5,005 nt of DNA from the IMG/VR virus record IMGVR_UViG_2698536450_000013; one strand, written 5' to 3'. The notes under the pieces are model-generated. The model made no database searches, was not told where the DNA came from, and saw only the letters and a program-made list of their open reading frames with translations. This DNA is from a virus. Taxonomy: Duplodnaviria; Heunggongvirae; Uroviricota; Caudoviricetes. This document shows positions 1 through 4,014 of this stretch, piece after piece (position 1 is the stretch's first letter; each line of letters begins with the position of its first letter). A program made the translations under genes and the position numbers.

Positions 1-103
1 CCAGCGACCAGCGACCAGCGACCAGCGACCAGCGACCAGCGACCAGCGACCAGCGACCAGCGACCAGCGACCAGCGACCAGCGACCAGCGACCAGCGACC
101 AGC
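1..103 (+). repeat. Perfect heptanucleotide tandem repeat (CCAGCGA)n, 14 full copies plus a 5-nt partial copy; tract continues past the 5' window edge
   Basis: Direct reading: ccagcga repeats without mismatch from 1 to 98, then ccagc (99-103). The unit is not a multiple of 3. All three + frames are open through the tract and encode the same heptapeptide in circular permutation (QRPATSD in frame 2). Confidence 0.95.
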
Positions 104-2155
104 AGTAAATCAAGAAAGTCTGTAAAATCTGTTGAGCCGGAAATTACCGAACTGGCGAACTCATGGCTTAAATCTTACAGGCTTGATTACAAGTTGCAGA
201 ATGCATCACTTAACGGAGAGATCGATAACGCACTGGACGCTTATTTTTCGAAAAATGGCGGCGCAGGCGGTAATCGTCCCGACGTAAAACTCCTTGTTAA
301 GGACAAATACGGCAAGCAGTATCCCGTTCTCATCGAGTATAAAGGCTACAAGGACAGGCTTATCAGACTTGGCAGCAACGGTATTATTGAGAACAAAGAT
401 GCCAGAAAAGAATGGAATTTTAAAAATATTAATGGATACGCGGTGAATGGCGCAGTCCATTATGCCAACGCACTTCTTCAGTTCACCAATTACCCTGATA
501 TTATTGCTATTGGTATGACCGGCTGGCGCGATGATGGTACAGGCGAACTGCATCATGAAATCGGCGTGTGGTACGTATCAAAGAATAATTTAGGAGCCGG
601 ACAGAAGGTTGGTGAATTCACCGACTTATCGTTCCTTGCTGATAAAAATGTTGATGGATTTCTCAACAAGATAAAGCTGCTTAATCTTCCTCCCGAAGAA
701 CTGGAAAAAATCAAGGCCAGCAAAGAGGAAGAGATAGACACGCGACTTTCCCGTCTGAATAACGATATTTACCAGAATGAAAAGGGGCTTGGTGAAAGTG
801 ATCGTGTTTACCTTGTTGTGGCTACCGTTATTGCAACGTTGGGGATTCCGGGAAAGTTAGCACCGCTGGATAAAAAAGAACTGACCTCTTCAACGGAGGA
901 GGACTTGCGTGATGGTGATATTATTTTCAGGAAAATAAGGAATTTTTTAAGGCTGAAAGCTGTTCCTGAAACAAAAAGAGAAATGATTTTGCGCTCGTTG
1001 CAAAATACGCTGTGGACTGAAAACATTAACAAACCAGTCAACGGTGAAAGCCAGTTAAAGCGCGTGTTTGTTAAAGTTGTTGATGATCTTGGGGAGTATT
1101 ACAAAATTGGACTGACCACCGATTTTACGGGCAAACTGTTTAATGAGATGTATCGCTGGCTTGGATTTACGCAGGACAAGCTCAATGACGTCGTTCTGAC
1201 ACCACCTTATGTTGCCACATTGCTGGCACGACTCGCCAGAGTAAACAAAGATTCCTATGTGTGGGATTTTGCTACAGGTTCTGCGGGATTGCTTGTGGCT
1301 GCAATGAATGAAATGCTCATTGACGCCAGAGAAAATATTCACTCACCGAACGAACTACAACTTAAGGAAGCGCAAATCAAGGCTGAACAGCTTCTTGGCC
1401 TTGAGGTGTTATCCAGTATTTATATGCTGGCCATCCTGAATATGATTTTGATGGGGGATGGTAGCTCGAATATCCTCAATAAAGACTCGCTGGCCGATTT
1501 TGACGGCAAGTATGGATTTGGGAAAACAGGAGAAAAATTCCCTGCGGACGCATTTATTCTCAATCCTCCGTATTCAGCTAAAGGTAACGGCATGATTTTC
1601 GTGCAGAAGGCGCTGTCGATGATGGATAAAGGCTATGCTGCAGTGATTATCCAGAGTTCAGCTGGCACAGGAAAGGCTACGGAGTACAACAAAAAAATAC
1701 TCAAGGAAAATACCTTGCTGGCAAGCATCAAAATGCCTGCGGATCTGTTTATTGGTAAATCAAGCGTTCAGACGTACATTTACGTTTTTCAGGTAAAAAT
1801 TCCGCATAACGCGAAACAGGCTGTTAAGTTTATCGACTTTTCCAATGACGGCTACGCTCGCTCTAATCGCAAAAAGGCAAGAAACAATCTTGTTGATGCC
1901 GATCGTGCAAAAGAGCGTTATCAGGAGGTTGTGGATCTGGTTCACTTCGGGAAAGGTTGCCTTAATATCTTTACGGAGGATGAATATTTTGAGGGAACAA
2001 TCGATCCTGATAGTGGTGAGGACTGGAATCAGACCAGGCCAGTAGATGCTAGGCCAACGCTGGAGGATTTCAAAAAGACGGTAGGTGATTACCTTGCATG
2101 GGAGGTCTCGCAATTACTGAAAAAACAAGGTGAAAACAATTTTGCGGGAAAGTAA
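2..2155 (+). CDS. 5'-partial CDS: gamma-class N6-adenine DNA methyltransferase with an N-terminal putative PD-(D/E)xK nuclease domain (Type IIG/IIB-like or Type I HsdM-like modification subunit)
   Basis: Frame 2 has no stop from the window start to TAA at 2153-2155. The ORF track starts at TTG 194 only because there is no ATG/GTG/TTG earlier; the upstream translation (SVEPEITELANSWLKSYRLDYKL) reads as ordinary protein and TTG 194 has no convincing Shine-Dalgarno. Motifs seen: LTPPYVATLLARLARV followed by VWDFATGSAGLLVAA (SAM-binding motif I, about nt 1258-1300), FILNPPYS (catalytic motif IV, about nt 1552-1575), and the post-NPPY region AAVIIQSSAG...LASIKMPADLFIGKSSVQTYIYVFQV typical of HsdM/MmeI-type enzymes. 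N-terminal RPD (D codon 281-283) ... IEYK (E 335-337, K 341-343) fits PD-x(n)-ExK. Confidence 0.8.
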   Translation, partial: QRPATSDQRPATSDQRPATSDQRPATSDQRPATSSKSRKSVKSVEPEITELANSWLKSYRLDYKLQNASLNGEIDNALDAYFSKNGGAGGNRPDVKLLVKDKYGKQYPVLIEYKGYKDRLIRLGSNGIIENKDARKEWNFKNINGYAVNGAVHYANALLQFTNYPDIIAIGMTGWRDDGTGELHHEIGVWYVSKNNLGAGQKVGEFTDLSFLADKNVDGFLNKIKLLNLPPEELEKIKASKEEEIDTRLSRLNNDIYQNEKGLGESDRVYLVVATVIATLGIPGKLAPLDKKELTSSTEEDLRDGDIIFRKIRNFLRLKAVPETKREMILRSLQNTLWTENINKPVNGESQLKRVFVKVVDDLGEYYKIGLTTDFTGKLFNEMYRWLGFTQDKLNDVVLTPPYVATLLARLARVNKDSYVWDFATGSAGLLVAAMNEMLIDARENIHSPNELQLKEAQIKAEQLLGLEVLSSIYMLAILNMILMGDGSSNILNKDSLADFDGKYGFGKTGEKFPADAFILNPPYSAKGNGMIFVQKALSMMDKGYAAVIIQSSAGTGKATEYNKKILKENTLLASIKMPADLFIGKSSVQTYIYVFQVKIPHNAKQAVKFIDFSNDGYARSNRKKARNNLVDADRAKERYQEVVDLVHFGKGCLNIFTEDEYFEGTIDPDSGEDWNQTRPVDARPTLEDFKKTVGDYLAWEVSQLLKKQGENNFAGK

Positions 2156-2214: not shown

Positions 2215-3309
2215 TTGTTCTATGTGAGCACAGGCTCGCTTATCTCCTCAGGAAGATTAAAACCAGGCAAAATCAAACGTGTTTCAGCAAAGAGCGATCA
2301 AAACGGTATCATCGGAGAGTTTGATACCGAGTTTATGGATGATGCAAGGCATTATGAAAATTTTATAAGCGTTAATTTTTTTGGAGATGCTTTTTATCAT
2401 CCTTATTGTGCCAGCGTAGAAATGAAGGTGCATGTTCTTACATTAAAATCAAGTAAGTCCGACTTTAATGCAAAGCGCGGACTGTATGTTGCCAGTATGA
2501 TTAATAAAGCTTTAAAGGGGCGTTTTAATTATGGTCAACAGTTATCGAGTTCCAAACTCAGAGATGGAGAATATTTCATCTCATTACCAGTGAAAAATAA
2601 TGAAATTGACTGGTTTTTTATGGATAATTATATAGAAGAGCTGGAAGCGGCCCATATAGAAGAGCTGGAAGCATACCTGATAGCTGCTGGGCTGAGTGAT
2701 TACCAACTAACGGAAAAAGATTATCTTATCCTGGAGCATTTTAAAAATATTGAATTTTCAGGCTTTCCTGTTACTGAGTTATTCTCAGTGTGCAATACAG
2801 GAAACATATTGTCTAGAGACATCATAGAAAATAGTGGGGATGTTCCTTATCTTTGTGCTAGCCGTGATAATAACTCTGTTAGTTCTTATATCGCCTATGA
2901 TGACTCACTCTTGGAAAAAGGGAACTGTATTTTTATTGGTGGTAAGACATTCGTTGTAACTTATCAGGAGCGAGACTTTTTTTCAAACGACAGTCATAAT
3001 TTGCGACTCTATGTTAACAATGAGGATGGAAGGACAAAGTTTGCTTATTTGGGCATTATTTCATGTATTTATAGGTCTATTTCACATAAATATTCATGGG
3101 GGGATAGTGTTAGTAATAGAAAAATTAAGAACGATGTTATTTGGTTGCCAGTGAAAAATAAGTCACCTGACTTTTGTTATATAAATGACCTTATTTCAGT
3201 TGTTCATAAGCTTGTCATTAAAGATGTTGTCCAGTACGCAGAACGCAAAATGAACGCATACAGGCAAGCTATAACAAGTCGCGGTTATGATGATTCTGGT
3301 GTCAGTTAA
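2215..3309 (+). CDS. Restriction-modification specificity (S / HsdS-like, BcgI-B-like) protein with two target-recognition domains; true N-terminus probably upstream of 2215 (frame open from 2134)
   Basis: ORF-track ORF of 364 aa ending at TAA 3307-3309. No ATG or GTG start and no Shine-Dalgarno; the listed start is TTG. The upstream in-frame translation VNSPLSDKLRSVEWGEFRIGDLFYVSTGSL looks like the start of a target-recognition domain. A second domain begins similarly (FSGFPVTELFSVCNTGNIL, about nt 2760). A repeated central region (IEELEAAH IEELEAYL) lies between them. The gene is visibly more AT-rich than the tRNA/TerB region. Confidence 0.7.
   Translation: MFYVSTGSLISSGRLKPGKIKRVSAKSDQNGIIGEFDTEFMDDARHYENFISVNFFGDAFYHPYCASVEMKVHVLTLKSSKSDFNAKRGLYVASMINKALKGRFNYGQQLSSSKLRDGEYFISLPVKNNEIDWFFMDNYIEELEAAHIEELEAYLIAAGLSDYQLTEKDYLILEHFKNIEFSGFPVTELFSVCNTGNILSRDIIENSGDVPYLCASRDNNSVSSYIAYDDSLLEKGNCIFIGGKTFVVTYQERDFFSNDSHNLRLYVNNEDGRTKFAYLGIISCIYRSISHKYSWGDSVSNRKIKNDVIWLPVKNKSPDFCYINDLISVVHKLVIKDVVQYAERKMNAYRQAITSRGYDDSGVS
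2630..2672 (+). repeat. Tandem duplication of a 24-bp (8-codon) unit inside the S-subunit central region: two perfect 19-bp copies of ATATAGAAGAGCTGGAAGC at 2630-2648 and 2654-2672
   Basis: Direct reading; the period is 24 bp, so it is in frame, encoding IEELEAAH / IEELEAYL between the two target-recognition domains. Confidence 0.9.
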
Positions 3310-3376
3310 AAAACATTTTACAATCGTAAAAATCCTCATATCATGATAAGAATGGTTACATTGCCACGCTGCTTAA

Positions 3377-3398
3377 CCCGCCGATGCGCGGGTTTTTT
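3377..3398 (+). terminator. Putative rho-independent terminator downstream of the S gene
   Basis: GC stem CCCGC (3377-3381) / GCGGG (3388-3392) with a 6-nt loop, followed by TTTTTT (3393-3398). The stem is short. Confidence 0.5.
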
Positions 3399-3573
3399 GT
3401 ATCCGGAATTCTGTGGGTTACCCTGCCCCCCTTAGAAAGGTGCGACAGCAATTAATAACAAAATCTTAAAAATCGCATATGGCACTATTAGTTTTCTAAA
3501 TATTGTATATTTTAAGTATTGCAGGATAACCCTGTAACGAAGTTTGCGTAACAGCATTTTGCTCTACGAGTTT

Positions 3574-3604: not shown

Positions 3605-3724
3605 GTCCGTAGCGTCAAAGCAGCAATGGCGCTGGGGCGTCGTGCAATTGGCGTTGAGCTGGAGAGCGGGCGTTTTGAGCAGACGGTCAGGGAAGTTCAG
3701 AATGTAGTCAGTCAGAACGGATGA
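3605..3724 (+). pseudogene. 3'-terminal remnant of a beta-class (CcrM/Dam-like phage) DNA methyltransferase gene; N-terminal and catalytic parts absent
   Basis: Frame 2 translation ending at TGA 3722-3724 reads ...AAMALGRRAIGVELESGRFEQTVREVQNVVSQNG*. This resembles the segment that follows the C-terminal SAM-binding motif in beta-class amino-methyltransferases (pattern LGR-x-[FA]-IG-[IV]-E). The expected DPFxGSGTT motif is missing upstream, where the sequence is non-coding-like and contains the terminator. Confidence 0.45.
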
Positions 3725-3764: not shown

Positions 3765-3840
3765 GGCCCTTTAGCTCAGTGGTGAGAGCGAGCGACTCAT
3801 AATCGCCAGGTCGCTGGTTCAAATCCAGCAAGGGCCACCA
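3765..3840 (+). tRNA. tRNA with anticodon CAU, resembling enterobacterial tRNA-Ile2 (lysidine, AUA-decoding) more than initiator or elongator tRNA-Met
   Basis: Hand-folded cloverleaf: acceptor GGCCCTT/AAGGGCC, D-stem GCTC/GAGC, anticodon loop CTCATAA, T-stem GCTGG/CCAGC, T-loop TTCAAAT, encoded CCA at 3838-3840. Confidence 0.88.
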
Positions 3841-3847
3841 TCACATA

Positions 3848-3924
3848 CCGCCATTAGCTCATCGGGATAGAGCGTCAGCCTTCGAAGCTGGTTGCGCGGG
3901 GTTCGAGTCCTCGATGGCGGTCCA
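3848..3924 (+). tRNA. tRNA-Arg, anticodon read as UCG (CGA/CGG-decoding)
   Basis: Hand-folded: acceptor CCGCCAT/ATGGCGG, D-stem GCTC/GAGC, anticodon stem TCAGC/GCTGG, loop CTTCGAA (U33, anticodon TCG at 3882-3884, A37), T-stem CGGGG/CCTCG, T-loop TTCGAGT, discriminator T, encoded CCA. Confidence 0.82.
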
Positions 3925-3937
3925 TTATCTGCACACT

Positions 3938-4014
3938 GTGTTGTTAGCTCAGCCGGACAGAGCAATTGCCTTCTAAGCAATCGGTCAGTGGTTAGACTCC
4001 ACTACAACGCGCCA
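3938..4014 (+). tRNA. tRNA-Arg, anticodon UCU (AGA-decoding, rare codon)
   Basis: Hand-folded: acceptor GTGTTGT/ACAACGC (one G-U), D-stem GCTC/GAGC, anticodon stem ATTGC/GCAAT, loop CTTCTAA (anticodon TCT at 3972-3974), T-stem AGTGG/CCACT, T-loop TTAGACT, discriminator G, encoded CCA. Confidence 0.85.

Follow-up and report, generated by a model that had tools for sequence, protein, structure and literature searches.

Does the heptanucleotide repeat that opens a 5,005-nt stretch of tailed-phage DNA (IMG/VR record IMGVR_UViG_2698536450_000013; the whole stretch is referred to here as the window) switch the restriction-modification (RM) gene behind it on and off? Repeat-driven phase variation of RM genes is characteristic of Haemophilus, Neisseria, and Helicobacter, and an earlier note on the window had proposed such an ON/OFF switch for what it called a methyltransferase gene. 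Extension of the sequence into the source genome and comparison with other strains lend support to this reading: a start codon precedes the tract, the conserved N-terminus of the enzyme follows it, the copy number varies even where the flanks do not, and every reading frame occurs. We estimate at roughly 80% the probability that the tract is a slipped-strand contingency switch in the 5' coding end of a prophage-borne, BcgI-like RM gene.

Tandem Repeats Finder detected a single array in the window, at positions 1-103 (period 7, unit CCAGCGA, 14.7 copies, 100% matches, score 206); a perfect array of this length in 5 kb cannot be attributed to chance. The window is 100% identical to Escherichia coli Z1323HEC0393 (record NZ_CP148357.1), in which the whole array spans 623 bp and comprises 89 perfect copies (L001 3481-4103; labels of this kind denote fetched loci, L001 being the Z1323HEC0393 locus). 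The window begins within this array, 520 bp of which lie upstream of its edge; the count of at least 14 perfect copies given previously was therefore correct as a minimum, yet far too low. The perfect tract contains no stop codon in any of the three frames and encodes the peptide (DQRPATS)n whichever frame is read. Its GC content is 71.5%, with 35-44% in the RM module and approximately 50% in the phage backbone. RefSeq also annotates a reverse-strand 'YXWGXW repeat-containing' or hypothetical protein over the tract (L001 3454-4113, minus strand; likewise in L003-L015); this repeat-only protein looks like a spurious annotation artefact.

Start codon and reading frames

In the source genome, the sequence up to and including the tract is aaaaggATGattttATGctgcca(GACCAGC)89. 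The nearer of two candidate start codons, ATG2 (ATG CTG CCA), lies 9 nt before the tract and is preceded by a Shine-Dalgarno sequence, AAGGA, 7 nt upstream; the other, ATG1, is located 8 nt further upstream, where an AAGG abuts it with zero spacer. At n = 89, the open reading frame (ORF) from ATG1 comprises 214 aa and that from ATG2 217 aa, and the enzyme frame is unreachable from either; the Z1323HEC0393 allele is OFF. The frame rule for this allele is simple: ATG2 is in frame if n is a multiple of 3, and ATG1 if n = 1 mod 3. The earlier note had made the ON/OFF state hinge on a start codon beyond the window and had suggested extending the sequence upstream; this extension located the start immediately 5' of the tract and assigned the allele to the OFF state. 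Translation also bore out the frames described in that note, with frame 1 and frame 3 closing shortly after the tract and frame 2 remaining open for more than 2 kb. The features concerned are as follows.

Positions 1-103, plus strand: the 3'-most 14.7 copies of the heptanucleotide (CCAGCGA, equivalent to the GACCAGC register), from Tandem Repeats Finder and the source record
Positions 106-125, plus strand: out-of-frame stops ending OFF-state translation, namely TAA 106-108 (frame 1; from ATG1 at n = 89) and TAA 123-125 (frame 3; from ATG2 at n = 89)
Positions 104-2155, plus strand: body of the predicted RM subunit in frame 2, with its stop at TAA 2153-2155 and its true start, the ATG 9 nt before the tract, outside the window
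Positions 194-196, plus strand: TTG chosen as the gene start by RefSeq/PGAP, at the cost of about 30 N-terminal residues, of which 20 are invariant or nearly so, including a modelled helix

Because an ATG is found 9 nt upstream and the conserved N-terminus of the enzyme directly follows, the tract forms part of the coding sequence, flanked by the start codon on one side and that N-terminus on the other. Its unit length is not divisible by 3. Repeat-free homologues from Neisseria, Providencia, and Methylophilaceae (72% identity, 677-686 aa) begin with M..KSxKSIEPNIADLANGWLKSY, and this N-terminus aligns to window positions 107-190, immediately 3' of the tract. A longer upstream protein in which the tract would serve as an internal linker was ruled out: the preceding gene, hok/gef, already stops 175 nt upstream, and only 9 nt separate the ATG from the tract.

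PGAP nevertheless places the gene start at TTG-194 in every genome, whatever the value of n, yielding a 653-aa protein (WP_001178557.1). Were this start genuine, the tract would be a mere leader or spacer, the enzyme would be made independently of frame, and the repeats would at most tune transcription or reinitiation; the out-of-frame stops 70-90 nt upstream make reinitiation conceivable. However, TTG-194 lacks a Shine-Dalgarno sequence, and it corresponds to residue 31 of the protein: in a 20-sequence alignment, 20 residues at positions 9-29 are invariant or nearly so, and all of them lie upstream of it. Its use would also remove a helix of the nuclease domain at residues 11-24, modelled by AlphaFold2 with a predicted local distance difference test (pLDDT) score of approximately 92, within a model that is poor overall (mean pLDDT 59.5) and confident in the N-terminal domain only. 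Moreover, repeat-free and unexpanded homologues all begin upstream of TTG-194, and frame 2 contains no ATG, GTG, or TTG codon between the tract and this position. The RefSeq/PGAP start is probably wrong, and a frame-independent enzyme is very unlikely.

The choice between the two ATG codons is informed by alleles in which the tract is unexpanded or missing. In L045, the gene opens with ATG CTG CCA GAC CAG CGA CCA GCG ACC AAT AAA, holding 2.7 copies (MLPDQRPATNKSRK), whereas the repeat-less L046 opens with ATG CTG CCA AAT CAG CGA CCA ACA AAT (MLPNQRPTNKSRK) and possesses one ATG only, behind GGGAGGA. Both are in frame with ATG2, and both are located after a Q antiterminator gene. ATG1, in turn, is replaced by ATA in L017 and L178 and is missing in L046 and L048. 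Because the unexpanded alleles are in frame with ATG2 and ATG1 is mutated or missing in these four loci, ATG2 is the conserved start, and we infer that it is the one used in translation. The OFF-state ORF from ATG2 (L001 3472-4125; up to position 125 in the window) consists almost entirely of (DQRPATS)n over its 217 aa, and OFF cells may thus make a long low-complexity peptide.

Copy number among strains and the case for a switch

The gene is present in about 30 of 5,426 complete E. coli genomes and in one phage genome, PhiR12_3. Across 26 long-read loci, representing 25 complete E. coli genomes and this phage, the copy number ranges from 31 to 120, with tracts of up to 840 bp and every frame represented. 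The comparison of tract lengths across related isolates proposed in the earlier note was performed by matching 800 bp of upstream and 3,300 bp of downstream flank (4.1 kb in total), and copy number was found to differ even among strains whose flanks show 0-1 mismatches. Five such groups were recovered: Symbioflor G6/7, G8, and G1/2 (n = 83, 99, and 91); O111:H8 strains (n = 56, 83, and 58); E2855, 2013C-3250, and 09-00049 (n = 31, 64, and 72); the UCPROB pair (n = 83 and 76); and KY174 with CFIAFB20190167 (n = 82 and 50). Direct translation yielded a full-length product from ATG2 in 6 of the 26 loci (G8, 99 copies; DETEC-S792, 54; JNEC-KY173, 66; strain 48, 120; 09-00049; and 2012EL-2448), the corresponding ORFs spanning 812-966 aa; a further 8 are full length from ATG1 alone, and 12 from neither ATG.

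The proposed mechanism follows the classical scheme. Translation from ATG2 would read (GACCAGC)n as an N-terminal (DQRPATS)n/3 extension, so that ON alleles would bear 18-40 heptads, and in the source allele the nuclease-methyltransferase would be reached solely at values of n divisible by 3. Each unit added or removed would move the frame by one, and out-of-frame ribosomes would halt at either of the two early TAA codons. Because nuclease and methyltransferase are predicted on one polypeptide, restriction and modification would toggle jointly, while the specificity (S) subunit would be produced separately and would be inert alone. On this model, slippage would occur often and in both directions within one culture, and the ON-state enzyme would be active.

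The 8 loci open from ATG1 alone bring up a three-state arrangement, in which ATG1 (MILCCQTSDQRPATS...) and ATG2 both initiate, two of the three frames are productive at perhaps unequal levels, and only n = 2 mod 3 is fully OFF. Most lambdoid alleles contain both codons, and gene callers predicted proteins beginning with MILCCQ (P0005 and P0010). Set against this are the AAGG that abuts ATG1 without a spacer, where ATG2 enjoys one of 7 nt; the ATA found in place of ATG1 in two loci and its absence in both L046 and L048, the latter a type III mod cassette; and the unexpanded ancestral alleles, which are in frame solely with ATG2. A productive ATG1 frame is thus doubtful, and a two-state switch governed by ATG2 is preferred.

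Several points weigh against a switch. The copy numbers derive from consensus assemblies, in which 6 tracts out of 26 are interrupted by single nucleotides (once each, but twice in the L012 tract); these interruptions decide the inferred frame of the loci concerned and may be assembly errors. Only 6 of 26 loci are ON by the ATG2 rule, which fits neutral drift among three frames; indeed, the 6/8/12 split is statistically compatible with equal thirds (chi-square about 2.2, our own calculation) and gives no sign of selection for ON. The second start, 8 nt upstream, could make another frame productive. A promoter scan found no convincing sigma-70 promoter just upstream of the gene, leaving expression in the lysogen uncertain. 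Finally, the anatomy, the frames, and the copy-number variation among loci are direct observations; switching and activity in Z1323HEC0393 are predictions.

The assembly errors just mentioned might be extended to the tract as a whole: short-read assemblies break or collapse at it, and 1-nt indels occur in some long-read tracts. Yet 25 independent complete genomes, a phage genome, and numerous metagenome contigs all carry the tract in this position, and the probability that it is an assembly or sequencing artefact is negligible. More serious is the proposal that the gene is decaying cargo, no longer under selection, with the tract being a microsatellite that has expanded unchecked and neutrally within a pseudogene. 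The 12 of 26 loci out of frame from both ATG codons, the very long tracts (to 840 bp), and the lack of a nearby promoter in the scan would all be accommodated. However, the 2-kb RM ORF past the tract and the S ORF are intact in the examined loci, OFF ones included, the catalytic motifs are invariant, and the tract itself stays perfect and stop-free in all frames. A fraction of roughly two thirds out of frame is also what a working switch would be expected to show: NeuO, encoded by prophage CUS-3 of E. coli K1, is OFF in 65.6% of 64 complete genomes (PMC13001214). Decay is accordingly improbable, and the contingency switch remains the favoured explanation.

The likeness to NeuO extends further. 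It too is cargo of an E. coli prophage, and a heptanucleotide repeat immediately behind its start codon is translated as N-terminal heptads; copy number varies from 3 to 53, and the gene is ON if n is divisible by 3 (PMC13001214). In NeuO, the length of the heptad extension modulates activity. It differs from the present gene in its unit (AAGACTC), in its product, a capsule-modifying O-acetyltransferase rather than an RM enzyme, and in phage type and locus, and its tracts are shorter than the 31-120 copies seen here. Together with the type III mod gene of Shiga-toxigenic E. coli (STEC) considered below, NeuO provides a precedent among E. coli mobile elements, and such a switch, although suggested to be unusual in an enterobacterial prophage context, is not unprecedented.

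The predicted enzyme and its prophage setting

From its sequence, the gene product is predicted to be the fused nuclease-methyltransferase (RM) subunit in a type IIB system of the BcgI-like kind, which has an S subunit to itself. An N-terminal PD-(D/E)xK nuclease is indicated by PD at window positions 278-283 and EYK at 335-343 (P59-D60...E78-Y79-K80), and a gamma-class N6-adenine methyltransferase by the motifs DFATGSAG and NPPY, all of which are invariant in the 20-sequence alignment. PADLOC assigned the full length of the protein to REase_MTase_IIG (E=3e-232) and matched the second protein to Specificity_II; Pfam detected N6_Mtase and a weak VRR_NUC in the former and Methylase_S, in two stretches, in the next ORF. 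The designation 'methyltransferase gene' thus holds for one domain only, since by these matches and motifs a nuclease is fused on the same polypeptide. No solved structure matches the protein by sequence, and a Foldseek search with the AlphaFold2 model returned HsdM, BsaXI, and BpuSI, all with low TM-scores that lend weak support, the BsaXI match covering nearly the whole length.

Two other classifications were considered and rejected. RefSeq naming implies a Type I HsdM; however, the protein scores 36 bits against TIGR00497, for which the cut-off is 242.75, and the locus is without hsdR. Indeed, neither hsdR nor an additional methyltransferase subunit was found at the locus, where the neighbours are hok, a methylase remnant, and tRNA genes. 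Membership of the type III mod (M.Eco131I) family was likewise set aside, as the protein carries N6_Mtase only, the STEC Mod carries PF01555 and PF12564, and only the 5' cassette is common to both.

BcgI-like type IIB enzymes combine two RM subunits with one S subunit and need no companion methyltransferase (Loenen et al. 2014, PMC3874165). The present system resembles BcgI, BsaXI, and NgoAVIII in architecture, that is, in a fused nuclease/gamma-methyltransferase accompanied by a separate two-domain S subunit without HsdR. Homologues at 72% identity are common in Neisseria, and the literature searched contained no report of a repeat switch for characterised BcgI-like enzymes. Coding-sequence repeats likewise impose ON/OFF control on RM methyltransferases in cj0031, a type IIG enzyme of Campylobacter jejuni, and in the mod phasevarions of Haemophilus and Neisseria (PMC4889913, PMC5909438). 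Those systems, however, rely on homopolymers or 4-5-nt units in far fewer copies and are chromosomal in host-adapted pathogens, whereas in the present case a temperate E. coli phage carries a 7-nt unit repeated as many as 120 times.

The following features lie downstream of the RM gene.

Positions 2215-3309, plus strand: predicted S subunit bearing two target-recognition domains; TTG 2215 is the first canonical start in a frame already open at 2131
Positions 2632-2683, plus strand: 24-bp tandem repeat (IEELEAAH), 2.2 copies, forming the spacer between the S recognition domains (Tandem Repeats Finder)
Positions 3375-3394, plus strand: terminator-like hairpin with a T-run, downstream of S, where transcription of the RM-S unit probably ends

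Upstream of TTG 2215 (region 2128-2224), the S frame already codes for conserved residues (KLRSVEWGEFRIGD), and in a Neisseria homologue the ATG of S sits where the window has AAA. The RM gene ends in GCG GGA AAG TAA, in which G_GGA_AAG forms a classic -1 slippery heptamer just before the stop; a -1 shift there would lead straight into S (385 aa) and yield a single-chain RM-S fusion of roughly 1,070 aa. The slippery motif and the open -1 frame occur in Neisseria as well. The IEELEAAH repeat is present in three copies in SCU-104 and JNEC-KY173 (L043 and L044, 4121 onward), and by analogy with EcoR124I/II its copy number could alter the spacing between half-sites. In L046, a (GLADSRTR)x5 repeat lies in the S-gene region, just upstream of a second half-S ORF. 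Although the S DNA is identical, some genome annotations show an intact gene and others split pseudogenes, which looks like an annotation artefact.

Along the source genome, NinG and NinH are followed by antiterminator Q and a pR'-like promoter, then by hok/gef, and finally by the tract with the RM gene; the locus is cargo of a lambdoid prophage and sits directly behind its Q antiterminator, in the Q-to-lysis slot that carries stx. The sole sigma-70-like site in the promoter scan was the pR'-like TTGAAA-16-TAGAAT after Q. The Hok/Gef-family toxin gene between Q/pR' and the RM gene (L001 3142-3297) is frameshifted in L042, L044, L178, L180, and L181. The segment after S (3302-3400) shares approximately 92% identity with the 3' end of Q and the downstream region of more than 500 Stx-type prophages and contains a promoter-like site at 3317-3344 as well as the terminator-like hairpin; it may thus be a second, remnant pR'-tR' junction, upstream of which the RM module may have recombined in. 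Further downstream lie the C-terminal remnant of a site-specific DNA methyltransferase (3610-3723) and three tRNA genes (3765-4014), given by ARAGORN as CAT, Arg-TCG, and Arg-TCT, the first of which PGAP names Ile. A tRNA trio of this kind is typical of Stx phages. In L012 (strain 2013C-3033), the stx1c A and B genes (5336-6398) are located immediately downstream of the RM-S module; therefore, the switchable RM system can reside on a Shiga-toxin-converting prophage.

A cassette shared with other methyltransferases

The same repeat unit has been described on another E. coli gene: the STEC type III mod gene M.Eco131I carries CAGCGAC[n], and fragment analysis showed its tract length to be heterogeneous within cultures (Atack et al. 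2018, PMC5909438). A published mod primer had no match in the viral-contig scan, and neither primer was complete in the loci fetched before the mod locus was recovered. Searching E. coli genomes with a 47-nt concatenate of the published primers led to plasmids of 92-117 kb, on which the mod locus lies beside mobA and a relaxase gene. In one of these loci (L048), ...aaaaagcTTGATTTTtattGAGGGAaatttttATGCTGCCA(GACCAGC)35 is in frame with a 713-aa Mod (PF01555 and PF12564) that has a DEAD/DEAH neighbour. This gene shares with the window gene the start ATGCTGCCA, the identical repeat unit and register, a tract placed after the start codon and ahead of the conserved N-terminus, and variation of n between strains. 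Its leader resembles that of L046, matching in 18 of the 25 nt before the ATG, including TTGATTTTT (our own count), with no similarity further upstream. A TTGATTTT(T) block lies at a constant distance, about -27 to -19 from the ATG, in L001, L045, L046, L048, and L179, and is thus found upstream of the start in BcgI-like as well as type III mod cassettes; its interpretation as a -35 element was dropped, as the matching -10 would overlap the ATG. In other respects, the two loci differ: the enzyme is unrelated, a type III Mod with a separate Res helicase; it is borne on a mobilisable plasmid rather than a lambdoid prophage; and its tracts are shorter, with primer-to-primer spans of 227-415 bp in eight complete-genome plasmids and 35 copies in L048.

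A third occurrence was found in Pectobacterium carotovorum DSM 30168 (L058 6520-7662), where ATGTC(GACCAGC)17 is in frame with a 380-aa adenine methyltransferase of the EcoRI_methylase family, behind a less similar leader. The GACCAGC heptamer thus heads three unrelated methyltransferase families, namely the BcgI-like, type III Mod, and EcoRI families. Other searches added little: a scan of genome contigs for 4 copies returned mostly high-GC genomes with short chance arrays, Pectobacterium being the only relevant one; tblastn of the repeat peptide against phage genomes found PhiR12_3 only; and a repeat-peptide search gave only 5 uninformative matches, probably owing to composition filters.

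Repeat-free relatives of Mod start with MQTELIRELN, and the STEC mod has MLP and the repeats in place of MQ. It is somewhat more probable than its contrary that the leader, ATGCTGCCA, and (GACCAGC)n form a portable ON/OFF cassette passing among unrelated DNA-modification genes of different mobile elements, which arose in the prophage BcgI-like gene and then replaced the MQ of the type III mod. Because unexpanded alleles are found only in the BcgI-like family, the cassette is taken to have originated there before being grafted onto mod, and from the sequences compared the transfer probably ran in that direction. For such grafting, the homology could come from the long perfect tract itself.

The proposed mechanism is a classical one, and its repeat unit was already published for another E. 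coli gene. Repeat-driven RM phase variation in E. coli has one prior report, that of the STEC type III mod, and the present locus would represent a second system, in a different enzyme class; neither this type IIB prophage system nor the shared cassette was described in the literature searched with 13 of the 14 rotations and reverse complements of the unit and with BcgI, type IIG, and prophage. A practical consequence concerns annotation, as RefSeq probably misplaces the gene start and calls what looks like a spurious reverse-strand repeat protein over the tract. Symbioflor G8 (ON), G6/7 (OFF), and G1/2 constitute near-isogenic natural pairs. Should the enzyme be active, sister cells within a single lysogen would not all restrict the same incoming phages and plasmids, nor would they share one genome-wide pattern of N6-methyladenine (m6A), and progeny phage would exit with or without modification. 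More speculatively, a type IIB enzyme turning from OFF to ON while the lysogen is unmethylated would cut the host chromosome and lead to SOS induction of the prophage. Beyond this locus, a cassette shared by unrelated methyltransferases suggests that horizontal exchange can extend to hypermutable switches themselves.

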